A stretch of 64,000 nucleotides of DNA from Chloroflexi bacterium UBA4730 (GCA_002404155.1 DHJC01000015.1:100887-164886); one strand, 5' to 3'. Positions 6,532 through 36,938 are shown, counted from the stretch's first letter. A program made the numbers and translations. The notes: generated by a model from the letters alone, not told the origin.

Positions 6532-6960
6532 TCACTGGTTCGTGGGGTTGCAGCCATTCCTGCTGATCTCGATCCCGTAGGCAGCAGAGCCGGCCGACGG
6601 CACGGACCGCGTAGTGAGCTTGGCGGTGAGCCTGCCGGTCGGATCGAAGTAGCAGCGCATCGAGACGTCGCCCTCGGTCCATTCGGGGCCCGGCCCCTGC
6701 CAGTTCATTTCGTGGAGCCGCTGGACGTAGTAGGTACGGATCTCTTCGGCCGAGTGCGGAGTCACGTATGACTCGGTGATCCGACGCTCGTCGTGCCGGG
6801 TGTTCACAGCGATTGCGTCGGGGAACCGGCCGAGCGTCACGAAGCTGCGCTCCATGAGATCGCGTTCCTCGGCGCCTTGGACCGTGCCAAGGACGACGAG
6901 CGATACGATGGCGAGCGTGATGGCTGCGAGGATCCCGACGTTGCGCGACCGGATCTTCAT
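6532..6960 (-). CDS. hypothetical membrane-anchored/exported protein
   Basis: 142-aa ORF with an N-terminal hydrophobic segment (VGILAAITLAIVSLVVLG). Codon usage is lower-GC than neighbouring genes. No recognisable domain. Confidence 0.55.
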   Translation of the reverse strand: MKIRSRNVGILAAITLAIVSLVVLGTVQGAEERDLMERSFVTLGRFPDAIAVNTRHDERRITESYVTPHSAEEIRTYYVQRLHEMNWQGPGPEWTEGDVSMRCYFDPTGRLTAKLTTRSVPSAGSAAYGIEISRNGCNPTNQ

Positions 6961-19250: not shown

Positions 19251-20624
19251 TCAGTAGAAAACGAGGCGACCGTCGGCCAGCCACCGCCCGAAGGCCCCCG
19301 ACAGGCCGAAGCCGGCGCCGGCGGTCCGGCCGGTCACGAGGTCGATCAGCGTGAATCCCGAGTACCCCGCGCCGCCGGCCTGGGGCTGAAGGATGTATCG
19401 CGCGTCGGGGGACATGTACCACCCGCCGCCGCGATAGCGCTGATGCTCCGCGCCGTCGAAGCCCATGACGAGACCGAGCAATTGGGCTCCCGCACCTGGC
19501 TCACCGGGGTCGCGCACGACCAGGAGCTCGCCGGTGGGGAACGATGAGACGTAGAGCACGCCTCCCTCGATCGTGCGCACGGTCTGCCCTGTCGCGACGT
19601 CGACGATCCGCACCCGAGCCTTGGCCGCTCCGGCTTCGGAGTCGCTGTCGATCCCTGCGAGTAGCTTTCCGTCGCGAGACCACGCGAGCGACACGCGAGC
19701 GTCCGCGCCATACCGACGGAATGGTCCCGCCATCCGCGTGACCGCGCCGTCGCTGAGGTCGACCACCGCGATGTGTCCGTCGGCGTTGTACCCCCACAGC
19801 GCGACGCGATCGCCCGCCGGGTTCGGGACCGCGGTCCACGGCAGGCCGCCGACCGCACCGCTGGCATCCGCGATGGACCGCATCGCGCTGCCGACGCCGT
19901 CGCCGACCCAGACGTTGCGTCCGACGATCAGCAGTCGCCCGTCAGGCAGCCAGTCGGCGAACGCAAATGGCCCGTCGGCAGCGGTCGGCTGCGCGAGCGG
20001 CGCACTGGCACGCGTCGCGAGCTCGATCATCGCGGGCGCTACGGCACTGGGAGGCGCGATCGCCTGGTACGTGATCGCGTGTCGGCCATCGGGCGACACC
20101 GTGAGCGCGCCCGCGGAGCCGATGCGGAACGAGGTGGCCGCGGTGCGGGAGCCACCGGTCGCGATCGCGTACAGCTCGTCGACCGTGAACTCGCCGACCA
20201 CGCGTGTCGCCGGAAAGTCGAGGTGCACGGTGAACAGCCCGAGCACCGCGCTGTTGTCGGCGGCGCGCGTCTCGGGGACCTTGAACGAGAGATTCTCGTT
20301 CGCCTCGGCGAACACGAGCCGCACGGTCCGGTCATCGGTCCAGGTGAGCGCAGCGGTCTTCGGCAGCCAGGTCTCGAGGAACGCGCGGTCGACCGCGAAC
20401 GGGAAGGTCATGACGATCGTGACCGAGCCGCCTGTCGGCGTCAGCGTGAACCCAGTGCCGTCGGTGTAAGGCGCGCCGTTCACCGTGATGCGGACGGCGG
20501 AGCCCGGCAGCGGACCCGTCGGGGCCGCGGATGCCACCGAGGCCTTTGGCGAGGCCGAGCCGCCTGCGAGCGTCGAGCCGCAGGCGCCCAGGACCAATAC
20601 GGCGGCAAGCACAATGGATCTCAC
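19251..20624 (-). CDS. lipoprotein with TolB/PD40-like beta-propeller repeats
   Basis: GTG 20624 gives VRSIVLAAVLVLGACGS with a lipobox. Repeated SPDG/SRDGK/PDGR motifs. Alternative start ATG 20702. Confidence 0.7.
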   Translation of the reverse strand: MRSIVLAAVLVLGACGSTLAGGSASPKASVASAAPTGPLPGSAVRITVNGAPYTDGTGFTLTPTGGSVTIVMTFPFAVDRAFLETWLPKTAALTWTDDRTVRLVFAEANENLSFKVPETRAADNSAVLGLFTVHLDFPATRVVGEFTVDELYAIATGGSRTAATSFRIGSAGALTVSPDGRHAITYQAIAPPSAVAPAMIELATRASAPLAQPTAADGPFAFADWLPDGRLLIVGRNVWVGDGVGSAMRSIADASGAVGGLPWTAVPNPAGDRVALWGYNADGHIAVVDLSDGAVTRMAGPFRRYGADARVSLAWSRDGKLLAGIDSDSEAGAAKARVRIVDVATGQTVRTIEGGVLYVSSFPTGELLVVRDPGEPGAGAQLLGLVMGFDGAEHQRYRGGGWYMSPDARYILQPQAGGAGYSGFTLIDLVTGRTAGAGFGLSGAFGRWLADGRLVFY

Positions 20625-20711
20625 CAGCTCATGTTGCGTCCTGCCGCCAGTCCATCCGCGGCTGTATCGCCCGCCTGCCAAGCGGAGGAGCAGCACCCGC
20701 ATAATCCCGTC

Positions 20712-21551
20712 ATGGCGAGAGATCGGATGGCGTTCCTCGGCGGCGGCGTGATGGCCGAAGCGATGATCCGCGGCGTGCTCGACAAGCATCTCGTTCCACC
20801 GTCCCGGATCACCGTCACCGGCCCGCGGCGTGAACGGCGCGCGGAACTCGCGAAGCAGTTCGGCATCACGGCCCTCGCGTCGAACCTGGATGCGGCGAAG
20901 GCGGCGGACGTCGTCGTGCTCTCGGTGAAGCCGCAGGTGCTCCCGACGGTGATGAAGGAGCTTCGCGGGAAGCTGCGGGCCGATCAGCTCGTGATCTCGA
21001 TCGTCGCCGGCGCGAACATGCGCGCGCTCGAGATCGGCCTCGCGCATCCAACGATCGTCCGCGCGATGCCCAACACGCCGGCGCAGGTGGGGATGGGCGT
21101 CACCGCGTGGTATCCGTCACACGCGGTGACGGCCGAGCAACGGGAGCGCACCAAGAGCATCGTCGCCGCGCTTGGCGAAGAGCTCATGGTCGAAGACGAG
21201 TCGTACATCGACATGGCGACAGCGCTGTCGGCGACCGGCCCGACGTACGTCTTCCTCCTGATGGAGGCCCTCGTCGACGCGGGCGTGCATCTCGGGTTCT
21301 CGCGGCGCGTGGCCGAGGAGCTGGTACTGCGTACGGTCGAGGGCTCTGCGCTCTTCGCCCGCAAGAGCGGCCGGCATCTCGCGGAGCTGCGGAACATGGT
21401 CACCTCGCCGGGCGGCACGAGCGCGGCGGCGATCTATCAGCTCGAGAAGGGCTCGCTGCGGACCGTACTATCGAAAGCCGTGTACGCCGCATACCAGCGT
21501 GCGACCGAGCTCGGCGCCACCGCGGAACGGAAGGTCACGCAGGACGAATGA
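20712..21551 (+). CDS. proC: pyrroline-5-carboxylate reductase
   Basis: MAFLGGGVMAEAMIRG, SVKPQ, AMPNTPA and VTSPGGTS motifs. The upstream part of the 592-aa track ORF is antisense to the lipoprotein gene. Confidence 0.9.
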   Translation: MARDRMAFLGGGVMAEAMIRGVLDKHLVPPSRITVTGPRRERRAELAKQFGITALASNLDAAKAADVVVLSVKPQVLPTVMKELRGKLRADQLVISIVAGANMRALEIGLAHPTIVRAMPNTPAQVGMGVTAWYPSHAVTAEQRERTKSIVAALGEELMVEDESYIDMATALSATGPTYVFLLMEALVDAGVHLGFSRRVAEELVLRTVEGSALFARKSGRHLAELRNMVTSPGGTSAAAIYQLEKGSLRTVLSKAVYAAYQRATELGATAERKVTQDE

Positions 21552-33276: not shown

Positions 33277-33295
33277 GGACGAGAGACTAGCGCTC

Positions 33296-33318
33296 TGATA
33301 GTCGGGCGGTGTGTTGAC
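33296..33318. repeat. left terminal inverted repeat of the IS
   Basis: See the IS feature. Contains a TTGACA hexamer facing the transposase gene. Confidence 0.7.
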
Positions 33319-33381
33319 ATTCGCCGTCGCAGGCGCAAGAAAGCACGGAGTTCGTGACCCACTTCAAAGGAGACGAACCCC

Positions 33382-34662
33382 GTGCTCAAAGCCGAGAGTA
33401 CCTGCGTAGTCCAGGTCGATCTCGCATCGCCCGATGGCGCTCTTGGTGGCTGGGAGCGTGCGCTCGCTGAGGCGCGCGCCAACCTCGTCCCCGTGATCGC
33501 GTCTCGCGTCCTCGCGGTCTTCGAAGAGCGACTCCTCGAACGAGCCTGTGGCGCCCGCCGCCACCCCGCCTCGGACGTCGCTCCATTCGGCTGTCCGCGG
33601 TGCGGCGCCGACTGCGGCTTCCGTCGCCGCGGCCGGCGGCCCCGCGCGGTGCTCAGCCGCGTCGGTCGGCTGCAGCTGCGCGTGGCGATGGTCGGCTGCC
33701 GCTGCGGTCACCGCTTCGCGCCGCTGCTGGGCGCGCTCGGCATCGAACCCCACGCCCGCCTCGCCCCGGGGCTCACCCGCCGAGCCCTGGAGCTGTGCAG
33801 CGAGCTGCCGTACGCGCGGGCCGCCGGCCAGCTGCGGCGCGAGGCCGGTGCGGCCCCGTCGCCGCGCAGCCTCGGCCGATTGGTCCGTCGTGCGGCCAGG
33901 CGCATCGCGCTCAACCAGCCGCGCTCGCCGCTGGGCGGGATCGAAGCGGTGCTCGTCGACGAGACCCGGGTGCGCGCCGGGCCCCGCAAGGGCGCGGACG
34001 ATCGGGGGCGCGAGCTCAAGATCGGCATTGCGCTCCGCCCGCCGGGTCTGGGGCAGCGCATCGAGCTGCTCGGCGCGAACCTCGCCGACAGCTGGGCCGC
34101 CCTTGGCCCGGCGCTTCGCGCGGCGCGCGGTGCGCGGATCGCGGTCACCGATGGCGAGTGGGGCGCCCGCGCGCTCATCGCGACGGCGCTGCCTGGGATC
34201 CCGCACCAGGTCTGCACGTTCCACGTTCGCCACTCACTCGACCACCGGCTCTGGCAGGACGGGGTGCCCTTCGCCCGCCGGCGGGCCCTGGCGAGCCGGC
34301 TCGGCGACGCGATCGAGTTCGCGCGCTCGGCGGAGAGCGCCCAGCAGGCCTTGGACGCCGCCCTCAGCCAGGCCGAGCGACAGCGCTGGCGGCACGCGGC
34401 CCGGCACTTGCGCGAGGTCGCGCCGCACCTGGCCACGTGGCTGCGCTTGGACCCCACCGGTCAGCTCGCGCACACGACCTCGCTCCTCGAGCGGACCATG
34501 CGCGAGGTCAACCGCCGCGTGGATCCGGCGGGCATGCGCTGGTCACTCGAAGGCGCGCGGGCAATGACCGCGCTCGTGCTCGCTCGACGGTTTGGGCACC
34601 CGCGCTGGGTCCGGTTGTGTCACGATCGCGGACCAGCGACGAGTCGGGTCCGGATCTCGTGA
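33382..34662 (+). CDS. transposase (ISLre2/UPF0236-like, family assignment tentative)
   Basis: 426 aa with AAGGAG 9 nt upstream of the GTG. N-terminal zinc ribbon CPRCG...CRCGH, acidic-residue contexts VLVDETRV and AVTDGEWG, and a C-terminal ERTMREVNRRVDPAGMRWSLEGARAM motif as I recall for this family. Confidence 0.7.
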   Translation: MLKAESTCVVQVDLASPDGALGGWERALAEARANLVPVIASRVLAVFEERLLERACGARRHPASDVAPFGCPRCGADCGFRRRGRRPRAVLSRVGRLQLRVAMVGCRCGHRFAPLLGALGIEPHARLAPGLTRRALELCSELPYARAAGQLRREAGAAPSPRSLGRLVRRAARRIALNQPRSPLGGIEAVLVDETRVRAGPRKGADDRGRELKIGIALRPPGLGQRIELLGANLADSWAALGPALRAARGARIAVTDGEWGARALIATALPGIPHQVCTFHVRHSLDHRLWQDGVPFARRRALASRLGDAIEFARSAESAQQALDAALSQAERQRWRHAARHLREVAPHLATWLRLDPTGQLAHTTSLLERTMREVNRRVDPAGMRWSLEGARAMTALVLARRFGHPRWVRLCHDRGPATSRVRIS

Positions 34663-34685
34663 GTCAACACATCGCCGCGCTATCA
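34663..34685. repeat. right terminal inverted repeat of the IS
   Basis: GTCAACACATCGCCGCGCTATCA. See the IS feature. Confidence 0.7.
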
Positions 34686-34690
34686 GCGCT

Positions 34691-35725
34691 CTACAGCTCG
34701 AGGGGCGGGTAGTAGCGGTCCACGCCTTCGCGCTTCAGATCGTCAAGCCACGTCGTGCCATAGATCGCCGGATGGTCGGGCCCGGCGATCGCCCATGCGT
34801 CGCGCCGGTACGTCCAGCTCGTCGGATGGAGGCGCTGCGCCTCCTTGAAGTGCTCGGTCGCGAGCTCGCGCTCACCGGAGGTGTTGAGCTGTTGGCCAAG
34901 CGCGAAGTGCGCGGCCGCCGTCGCCTCGCTCACCGGCCGTGGCCGGCTGCGGCGCACGACCTCATCGGCAGCGAGCGCGTAGCGGCTCGCCGGTCCAAGA
35001 GCCACCCAATCGCGAAGTGCCGCGACGTACCCGTCCGCGTCGACGTTCAGCGCCTTCACCGCCTCGATCCGTTCGCGTTCGACCGGCGTCGCGCCGTCCG
35101 GGACGGTCTGGTCCTTGAACGCCGGCCGCCGCGGGTACGCCGTCTCGGGCAGCCGCACGATCACGCCGCCCTCATCGATCCACACGCCGCTCGGGACGTT
35201 CACGATGCCGAGTGCCGCGAGCGTGTGCGCCTCGTCGACGAGCGATGGGTGGGCCGGCTGGGCCTTCTCGATCCACGGCCGGGCAGCGGCGCTGCCCCGC
35301 GCATCGAGCGCGACGGTCACGATCTCGAGGTTCGGGTAGAGCTCGGTCCGCAGGTCCTGCCACACGGGCAGGTCGAAGCGGCAGCCTCACCATGACGCCC
35401 ACGCGAGTAGGAAGGCCTTGCGTCCGCGCAACGCGGAGAACCGGAATGGCCGGCCCTCGAGGTCCGGCAGCTCGAGGTCCGGAAGCGTGGCGCTCTCGAG
35501 CGCCCTGCCGCCGGCCTCCGTCCCGAGGGCCCACAGTCGGGCGCGCGGCTCGACGACGAGCGGCATCCCCAGCGCGCGCGACACGGCCGCGAGATCGATC
35601 GCGTCGGACGAGCCGCTCGAGAACGGCACGCAGCGCTCCATCTGACAAAGCCCTTCGGGCTTTAGCTCCCAACCGGTCACACGATCGAGCTCGTCCGCCG
35701 ACACGCGCGCCGAGCGGAAGATCAC
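34691..35725 (-). CDS. TlpA/ResA-like thioredoxin-fold protein with in-frame TGA at the redox-active position (candidate selenoprotein; alternatively a nonsense pseudogene)
   Basis: Track ORFs 35387..35725 and 34691..35365 are in the same frame, separated only by TGA 35389-35387. The joined sequence reads ...GRKAFLLAWASW-TGA-GCRFDLPVWQDLRTELYPNLEIVTVALD, the WxxWCxxC...D pattern of TlpA/ResA redoxins. The C-terminal extension is helical-repeat-like. Confidence 0.6.
35348..35381 (-). promoter_or_regulatory. hairpin downstream of the in-frame TGA (candidate bacterial SECIS element)
   Basis: mRNA after the UGA is GGCUGCCGCUUCGA-CCUGCC-CGUGU-GGCAGG-ACCUGCGG. It has a 6-bp G/C-rich upper stem starting 15 nt after the UGA, a 5-nt loop containing G/U, and a possible 4-bp lower stem (CCGC/GCGG). 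Confidence 0.35.
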
Positions 35726-36318
35726 GCGGTCTCCACGACGTGCGAGTCCTTGAACATCTCCTGCACCACGAAGCCGCGCTCGGCGTCGTGCGTGACGATC
35801 GTGATGTTCGTGTTCGTCGCCGGCACGCGGACGAGCTTCGGCAGCACGCCCATGAAGAGGCTCACCAGGATCCGGGTGACGCCGCCGTGGCCGACGATGC
35901 AGATGGTCTTCCCCGGGCTCTCGCTCACGAGCCGCTCGATCACCCGCATGACGCGGGTGACGATCTGGTCCAGCGACTCACCACCGGGCCACTGGGTGAA
36001 GCCGTCGCCCGAGTAGCTCGGCAGCCCCCTCATCTCGTCGAACGGCTTGCCCGCCGCGTCGCCGAGGTCGATCTCCTTCAGCCCGGCGTAGGTCTCGAGC
36101 GGGACCCCGCGACCGGCGGCGATCTCTGCGGCGGTGTCCGTCGTGCGTGAGAGCGTGCTCGCGACGATGCGGTCGAAATGAATGGGCCGGAGAGCCTTCG
36201 CGACGACCGTCGCCTGCTCACGGCCTTTCGCCGTGAGCGGGCTGTCGCTCTGGCCGGCGAAGACGCCGGCCGCGTTCGCCTCGCTCTCGCCATGGCGGAT
36301 GAGGTACAGCGTGGTCAC
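35722..36318 (-). CDS. histidine phosphatase family protein (phosphoglycerate mutase-like)
   Basis: LYLIRHGESEANAAG...SPLTAKG catalytic RHG motif. Start at GTG 36318, just after the upstream stop. Confidence 0.8.
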   Translation of the reverse strand: MTTLYLIRHGESEANAAGVFAGQSDSPLTAKGREQATVVAKALRPIHFDRIVASTLSRTTDTAAEIAAGRGVPLETYAGLKEIDLGDAAGKPFDEMRGLPSYSGDGFTQWPGGESLDQIVTRVMRVIERLVSESPGKTICIVGHGGVTRILVSLFMGVLPKLVRVPATNTNITIVTHDAERGFVVQEMFKDSHVVETA

Positions 36319-36323
36319 AGCGT

Positions 36324-36938
36324 TCAGACGCCGAGCTCCGTCGCCAGATCCGTCCACGTCGCGACCCGGGTGATGTTCGGATGCGCGAGGTCGCGGTTCC
36401 AGGTGTGATCGAAGAGCCACACCCGGATCCCGGCCTCCGCGAGCGATCTCGCGATCAGCACGTCGTCCTCGCAGAACGCGTCGAGCTCGAGCTCCTTCGC
36501 GAGGCGGACTTTGTACTTCGCGGAGCTCGTCGCGTCGTAACGGCCGGGCGGCACGCCGGGATCGAAGTCGCCGTGCGGCTTGAGGTGGACCGCGCGAGCG
36601 TGCTGGATGAGGCCTTTCTCGCGGAGCCAGGTCTCCGTGACGACGCGGCGGCGCTCGGCGCGAGCGGTGATGAAGTAGATCTCGTGGCCGGCGTCGGCGA
36701 TGCGCTCGACGATCGTCGGGCAGTCCTCGTACGGCTCGAGCTTGCTGAAGAACTTTCCGTCGTAGAGCGCGATCCGGAAGCGATCCTTCTCTTCGCCGCT
36801 CACCTCTTCGATGCGCGCGAGGGTCTGCCAGCCGAGATCCTCGTCAGGCAGCTCCAGGCGGAATCGATCTGCGAAAGCGCGCAGGTAGGGCACCGCGCAC
36901 TCCGCGACGACGTCGTCGAGGTCGACGCCGATCCTCAC
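36324..36938 (-). CDS. HAD-superfamily 5'(3')-deoxyribonucleotidase-like hydrolase
   Basis: N-terminal DxD motif MRIGVDLDDVV. 204 aa. Confidence 0.65.
   Translation of the reverse strand: MRIGVDLDDVVAECAVPYLRAFADRFRLELPDEDLGWQTLARIEEVSGEEKDRFRIALYDGKFFSKLEPYEDCPTIVERIADAGHEIYFITARAERRRVVTETWLREKGLIQHARAVHLKPHGDFDPGVPPGRYDATSSAKYKVRLAKELELDAFCEDDVLIARSLAEAGIRVWLFDHTWNRDLAHPNITRVATWTDLATELGV

Follow-up and report, generated by a model that had tools for sequence, protein, structure and literature searches.

Does the lone TGA codon inside a redoxin-like gene of Chloroflexi bacterium UBA4730 end translation, or is it read as selenocysteine (Sec)? The gene lies on the minus strand of a 64,000-nucleotide (nt) stretch of this genome (GCA_002404155.1 DHJC01000015.1:100887-164886; "the window" hereafter means this whole stretch), where positions 35725 to 34691 form a single frame from a GTG start to a TAG stop at 34693-34691. 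A first-pass annotation, made from the sequence alone, had described two open reading frames (ORFs; 35725-35387 and 35365-34691, minus strand) that share one frame with only a TGA between them, and this arrangement was borne out: the sole break is the TGA at 35389-35387, in the context LLAWASW-TGA-GCR, and beyond it there are no more stops or frameshifts up to the TAG at 34691. The read-through product is ...RGRKAFLLAWASW-[TGA]-GCRFDLPVWQDLRTELYPNLEIVTVALD, the continuation after the TGA also being given as GCRFDLPVWQDLRTEL... Our results indicate that this UGA, codon 113, is very probably the Sec codon of a ResA/TlpA-type selenoprotein, with a hairpin just downstream acting as its Sec insertion sequence (SECIS). 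The central features of the gene are the following.

34691..35725, minus strand: complete candidate selenoprotein gene, 344 codons plus TAG; a single frame with one internal TGA, a match to family NF041054, colinear with full-length cysteine (Cys) homologues.
35723..35725, minus strand: GTG start, with a 4-nt overlap (GTGA) with the upstream stop; homologues start at the equivalent site (MIL.../MIF...), and the three closest loci (L001-L003) begin VIF...
35387..35389, minus strand: UGA codon 113, predicted Sec and putative attacking residue of the U-G-C motif; TGA in 75/77 and TGC in 2/77 loci, Cys in full-length homologues, equal ratios of nonsynonymous to synonymous substitution rates (dN/dS) on either side.
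35381..35383, minus strand: TGC codon 115, putative resolving partner Cys; invariant in alignments A1 and A3 and in 76/76 Sec-form sequences.

Conservation of the internal TGA codon

A scan of one genome per species (GTDB contigs) yielded 80 related loci, 77 of which carry the motif pattern W[AS][ST]W.GC. At the motif column the codon is TGA in 75 of these 77 loci and TGC in the other two. TGA-bearing loci are found in Chloroflexota, Actinomycetota, Dormibacterota, Acidobacteriota and some Proteobacteria; the nearest are metagenome-assembled genomes (MAGs) of Candidatus Limnocylindria (Chloroflexota), with 84% identity for L001, and the related loci come from soil and groundwater MAGs. More distant full-length homologues have Cys at this column (WASWCGC), as do 31 Cys forms from metagenomes. 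The first-pass annotation had located the TGA at the first active-site Cys of a redoxin, and the homologue alignment does show either Cys or TGA there. Three further loci, L054, L057 and L060, lie outside the motif pattern and may carry a variant motif.

The region beyond the TGA shows the same signs of translation as the region before it. Closest relatives in the databases (66-100% identity) are nearly all C-terminal fragments of 224-234 amino acids (aa), which implies that independent assemblies carry a stop at the same position. In comparisons with L001, L002 and L003, dN/dS ranges from 0.20 to 0.25 upstream of the TGA and from 0.19 to 0.30 downstream, and the low downstream values indicate that the two-thirds of the gene past the TGA is translated. 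When the 64-kb window was scanned for TGA codons with coding-type G+C content at third codon positions (GC3) on both sides, this was the only one that is not a gene boundary. TGA terminates 20 of the 42 likely genes in the window, which speaks against any genome-wide change of the genetic code. From this comparative record we infer that selenium is incorporated at codon 113. Two other TGAs with coding signal on both sides, at 6534 and 10409, were considered as further selenoprotein codons and rejected as ordinary gene boundaries.

A hairpin whose conservation follows the TGA

35356..35372 (loop 35366-35362), minus strand: predicted SECIS hairpin CCUGCC-CGUGU-GGCAGG; supported by folding energy, pairing, loop pattern and codon constraint.

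A hairpin beginning about 15 nt past the UGA had been proposed in the first-pass annotation, and its first base is precisely the 15th nt after that codon. The element (35372-35356, minus strand) consists of a 6-bp stem and a 5-nt apical loop. Folded alone, the 17-nt hairpin reaches -9.3 kcal/mol (z = -3.1), a stability equalled by 2/200 shuffles; the signal is weaker in its 66-nt context, where z = -1.57 is not unusual for DNA of 70% G+C. Taken from this single sequence, the hairpin is only suggestive.

We analyzed pairing in an ungapped alignment (A2) of 76 Sec-form sequences, 75 of them distinct. Pairing is found in 98.7% of the cells that make up the six-pair helix, with all six pairs complete in 70/76 Sec forms and five of the six in the remaining 6, and RNAalifold recovered the same helix. 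At the basal pair we observed CG in 60 sequences, UA in 7, GC in 2 and UG in 2, the pair being broken in 4, and its covariation score is higher than in all 500 shuffles. The possible lower stem that had also been proposed is present in this sequence but is not conserved, being paired in 66% of cells across relatives.

Codon usage provides the stronger argument for a SECIS, because five of the pairs hardly vary and leave little room for covariation. Codon entropy is 0.10 bit at L119 (CTG in 74/75) and 0.48 bit at P120 (CCC in 70/76), the two lowest values among 96 conserved four- or sixfold degenerate columns, for which the median is 1.57 bit; Q123 is encoded by CAG in 74/74 sequences. As a control we used the 31 Cys-form genes of the family from metagenomes, all distinct. 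Their L119 codons are CTG 14, CTC 11, CTT 3, TTG 2 and CTA 1 (n = 31), their P120 is often replaced by Ser, and the full helix is found in just 8/31. The loss of constraint in Cys forms indicates that the nucleotide constraint travels with the TGA. One Cys form with TGC, from a Burkholderiales MAG (L067, coordinates 1191-1268), retains the CUGCC/GGCAG helix and could be a recent Sec-to-Cys switch.

In the consensus of Zhang & Gladyshev for bacterial SECIS (bSECIS) elements, as given in PMC13188914 (Fig. 2 legend), the upper stem has 4-16 bp and carries an apical loop of 3-9 nt, one of the first two loop bases is a G, usually with G or U after it, the UGA-to-loop distance is 16-37 nt, and the minimum free energy does not exceed -7.5 kcal/mol. 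Here a 5-nt loop stands on a 6-bp stem, the UGA-to-loop distance is 20 nt (35386-35367), and the energy of -9.3 kcal/mol lies below the limit. The loop reads N-G-[U/G]-N-U in 76/76 sequences (CGUGU 54, CGGGU 16, GGUCU 3, AGUUU 1, AGUCU 1, AGUAU 1), the second base always being G and the third either U or G. The hairpin had been called compatible with bacterial SECIS elements, and it agrees with the consensus on all four counts while its conservation is linked to the TGA. Judged by this pattern of conservation, the hairpin is a SECIS element under RNA-level selection tied to the TGA, and its recognition by SelB is predicted. Like the SECIS elements of the E. coli fdhF/fdnG type, it is a stem-loop embedded in coding sequence immediately after the UGA; in sequence it does not resemble the E. 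coli elements, and only the short near-invariant helix is conserved here.

Alternatives to selenocysteine

The first-pass annotation had itself named a nonsense pseudogene as the alternative: a TGC-to-TGA mutation in a Cys-type redoxin, after which a 112-aa N-terminal piece or nothing would be made. A lone in-frame stop does resemble a fresh nonsense mutation, gene callers reduce the locus to a 224-aa "hypothetical protein", and an insertion sequence (IS) lies immediately downstream. This explanation fails, however, on the sequence past the TGA, where purifying selection on 231 codons matches that on the upstream part and no additional stops or frameshifts are seen; moreover, the same TGA recurs in several phyla among motif loci of 47-84% identity, and the IS is outside the ORF, past the stop codon. 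We regard it as very improbable. An error of sequencing or assembly, the true codon being TGC or TGT, would need a change of just one base, and metagenome assemblies do contain errors. Against it, a C-terminal fragment (the 224-aa ORF) that is 100% identical occurs in an independent Joint Genome Institute (JGI) assembly, in a cluster of 11 sequences, as many as 75 genome assemblies independently show TGA, and the SECIS-specific codon constraint goes with TGA and not with TGC, so that such an error is extremely unlikely. TGA conservation, selection, the independent assemblies and the normal use of TGA as a stop together effectively exclude both of these explanations.

Another possibility is that a near-cognate tRNA, for Trp or Cys, decodes the UGA with help from the hairpin, or that the locus yields two polypeptides, residues 1-112 and a 224-aa protein starting at GTG 35365. 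Downstream hairpins can also boost ordinary read-through, the GTG stands 8 codons past the TGA and was used as a start in the ORF list, and Sec machinery was seen neither in the window nor in the fetched loci. Yet the TGA alternates with Cys codons only, and the exchange affects the catalytic residue of a thioredoxin fold, as is characteristic of Sec/Cys pairs; in all 76 Sec forms the hairpin fits a SelB-type bSECIS in its stem, its loop G-[U/G] and its spacing. With a split product the active-site helix would be broken in two, between W112 and G114, and the motif would be parted from the remainder of the fold. The GTG at 35365 is the codon of Val121, which is Gly in 16/76 Sec-form relatives (those with loop CGGGU), and it is thus not a conserved start. 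On balance we consider non-Sec decoding or a split product improbable.

Several observations weigh against reading UGA 113 as a Sec codon. The 64-kb window has no tRNA and no Rfam match, hence no tRNA-Sec, and no sel family (selA, selB, selD) was found among the 20 larger window ORFs scanned against NCBIfam. ARAGORN and a tblastn search with an E. coli SelD probe returned nothing from the window or from 200 related loci (1.8 Mb); the tblastn negative is weak, and these searches say little about the whole genome. A 621-aa window ORF with coding-type GC3 (19251-21116, minus strand) has no NCBIfam match at E <= 1e-5 and is not SelB-like by that measure. The literature searched holds no report of experimental selenium incorporation for the NF041054 family. 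Clustering of flanking ORFs revealed no conserved neighbourhood hinting at a substrate, no family being present in more than 8/77 loci. Finally, five of the six stem pairs are nearly invariant, which leaves covariation at one pair, together with the synonymous-site argument, to support the helix. Some Chloroflexi have been reported to have selenoproteins (PMC1794560).

A member of a curated selenoprotein family

The 344-aa product, scored with U replaced by C, matches the NCBIfam equivalog NF041054 ("WAxxUGC_long", ResA-like WAxxUGC motif-containing protein) with 475.8 bits against a cut-off of 300 (E = 8.9e-143). The alignment runs from end to end, residues 1-343 lying on positions 1-353/354 of the profile, and the gene is a member of this already curated selenoprotein family. 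Its motif W109-A110-S111-W112-U113-G114-C115 corresponds to the W-A-x-x-[U/C]-G-C of NF041054, the columns of which are invariant in our alignments. The one-residue spacing of U-G-C had been described as unusual; it is instead the defining motif of NF041054, and the full-length match makes the spacing a family signature rather than something special to this copy. The window protein is colinear with Cys homologues of full length, which are 46-54% identical to it. Invariant residues include T17-G18-W19, C27, C32 and W109-A-S-W-[U/C]-G-C-R116, and the whole protein contains no Cys or Sec except at positions 27, 32, 113 and 115. The domains of the protein are as follows.

35501..35725, minus strand: N-terminal domain of about 75 aa; invariant Cys27/Cys32 (C-x4-C) and T17-G18-W19, without a Pfam match.
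35126..35500, minus strand: ResA/TlpA-like thioredoxin-fold domain with W-A-S-W-U-G-C; marginal Pfam AhpC-TSA and Redoxin matches, Foldseek matches to ResA, DsbE and TlpA.
34694..35125, minus strand: C-terminal all-helical domain, weakly TPR-like; helices 204-337 of the homologue model, sub-cut-off TPR matches.

We read the fold from the AlphaFold model of P0006, a Cys homologue with 53% identity (predicted local distance difference test score, pLDDT, 88.5). Three parts are seen in this model: at the N terminus a small alpha/beta unit, then a thioredoxin fold, and at the C terminus a helical domain. The best Foldseek matches, which concern the middle part, are ResA, DsbE and TlpA (E ~1e-10; target-normalised template-modelling (TM) scores of 0.71-0.77). 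The Pfam AhpC-TSA and Redoxin matches of the window protein are marginal, just over their cut-offs. In the C-terminal domain, TPR_14, TPR_1 and TPR_2 all match under their cut-offs, and PF07719 is precomputed on many relatives; the N-terminal domain is without a Pfam match even at E <= 5. A search for membrane segments or a signal peptide found no hydrophobic stretch (maximum 19-residue Kyte-Doolittle mean of 1.2), the N-terminus being taken up by a soluble domain that is conserved, and the protein is therefore probably soluble and cytoplasmic, unlike ResA and TlpA. The C27/C32 pair, encoded at 35630-35647 (codons 27-32, minus strand), is invariant in A1 and A3. This N-terminal C-x4-C may form an additional site, for redox chemistry or for a metal, that cooperates with the U-G-C centre.

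Comparison with known redoxins and selenoproteins

That the protein is a TlpA/ResA-like redoxin, as had been suggested from the sequence, is supported by the P0006 model, which superposes on Bacillus subtilis ResA (1st9/2f9s) with a target-normalised TM score of ~0.75 and a root-mean-square deviation of ~2 A, at 24% identity over ~118 residues; Bradyrhizobium TlpA (1jfu/4txo) is also matched by Foldseek. The window protein shares with these proteins the W-x-x-W context ahead of the active site. The active site of ResA and TlpA is C-x-x-C, whereas that of the window protein is U-G-C (C-G-C in Cys forms), with a single spacer residue that is invariant in the family. ResA and TlpA are extracytoplasmic and take part in cytochrome maturation, whereas the window protein is without a membrane anchor or signal peptide, and no cytochrome-maturation gene links it to this process in its neighbourhood. 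It also differs from them in its extra N-terminal C-x4-C domain and C-terminal TPR-like domain. The NCBIfam models for ResA, TlpA and StoA score 37.5, 33.3 and 29.9 bits, far under their respective cut-offs of 230, 170 and 210.

Within NF041054, the three-part architecture and the W-A-x-x-U-G-C motif are shared by other members, such as the Patulibacter minatonensis protein P0111. The window copy, from a Limnocylindria-like member of the Chloroflexota, has Sec, whereas several named members, among them P0111 and P0069, have Cys. In the literature searched by full text the name WAxxUGC was not found, and the family is curated in the database only. A selenoprotein family described as UGC-containing and peroxiredoxin (Prx)-like or TlpA-like has been in the literature since 2008, with MDE0950781.1 as a published example. 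The Global Ocean Sampling (GOS) study listed the selenoprotein family "Prx-like (UGC-containing)" with 46 Sec and 855 Cys sequences, commoner in non-marine samples (PMC2398784), an abundance in keeping with the MAGs of the present loci, which are from soil and groundwater. The window protein has in common with that family a Prx/TlpA-like thioredoxin fold, one Sec in U-G-C and many Cys homologues; the two are likened here by description, and the published family may be either the same "long" three-domain family or a shorter relative.

The family and its U-G-C motif are thus already curated, SECIS elements of this kind are well described in bacteria, and the locus adds little new biology. New here is the comparative description of the predicted SECIS, CUGCC-NG[U/G]NU-GGCAG within the D-L-P-V-W-Q codons, near-invariant in Sec forms and relaxed in Cys forms. 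Also new is the predominance of the Sec form among the nearest species (75/77 species-level motif loci), from soil and groundwater Chloroflexota and Actinomycetota. For annotation the case matters because standard gene callers split the gene and call its 224-aa remainder a "hypothetical protein", the correct call being, with the high probability stated above, a single 344-aa selenoprotein. By the same token, the gene marks its source organism, a Limnocylindria-like Chloroflexota, as a likely Sec user.

Proposed mechanism and function

We propose that UGA 113 would be decoded as Sec during translation and, by analogy with the E. coli system, that the SECIS would recruit SelB-GTP-Sec-tRNA(Sec) to a ribosome paused at the UGA. 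In the folded protein, Sec113 is predicted to lie where the first helix of the thioredoxin fold starts, at the site taken by the nucleophilic Cys in CxxC redoxins. There it may act as the attacking group, on either a substrate disulfide or oxidised species of sulfur or selenium, after which Cys115 would resolve the intermediate with formation of a U-G-C selenenylsulfide. These catalytic roles of Sec113 and Cys115 are modelled on those of the related redoxins.

Model studies show that C-x-C centres behave differently from C-x-x-C centres. It is possible, although on present evidence we hold it doubtful, that the protein is a three-domain cytoplasmic selenoenzyme with distinct chemistry rather than just another disulfide reductase. 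Such an enzyme could combine the N-terminal C-x4-C domain, a ResA-like domain whose U-G-C selenenylsulfide is strained, and the TPR-like domain, and it might act through an isomerase- or oxidase-like C-x-C centre or through an internal redox relay to the C-x4-C.

Genomic neighbourhood and an adjoining insertion sequence

35722..36420, minus strand: histidine-phosphatase (PGAM) family gene, upstream and translationally coupled; context only, not a conserved partner.

The 4-nt overlap between the candidate selenoprotein gene and a phosphatase gene upstream, reported in the first-pass annotation, is confirmed: GTG 35725-35723 overlaps the stop TGA 35724-35722 as GTGA. The best NCBIfam matches of this upstream ORF (35722-36420) are alpha-ribazole phosphatase-like, under cut-off. 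The gene order mfd / HAD-like / phosphatase / selenoprotein / APRT is kept in the three closest loci (L001-L003) only. With its start at GTG 36420, the phosphatase ORF overlaps by ~97 nt the end of the preceding 204-aa ORF (36324-36938, minus strand), which has no NCBIfam match and for which "HAD-like" is a provisional label only. As the conserved part of the PGAM domain starts only around residue 36 (LYLIRHGES), the true phosphatase start is probably further downstream.

An IS of 1388 bp (33297-34684) is located between the candidate selenoprotein gene and the APRT gene. Its transposase ORF (33382-34662, plus strand) belongs to the ISH6 family (NF041731, 269 bits against a cut-off of 240), its terminal inverted repeats are imperfect and 22 bp long (33297-33318 and 34663-34684), and it is flanked by an 8-bp target duplication, AGCGCTCT (33289-33296 and 34685-34692). 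In L001 the site is empty and APRT begins 23 nt past the selenoprotein stop. The IS lies just beyond the TAG stop and has left the selenoprotein ORF intact.

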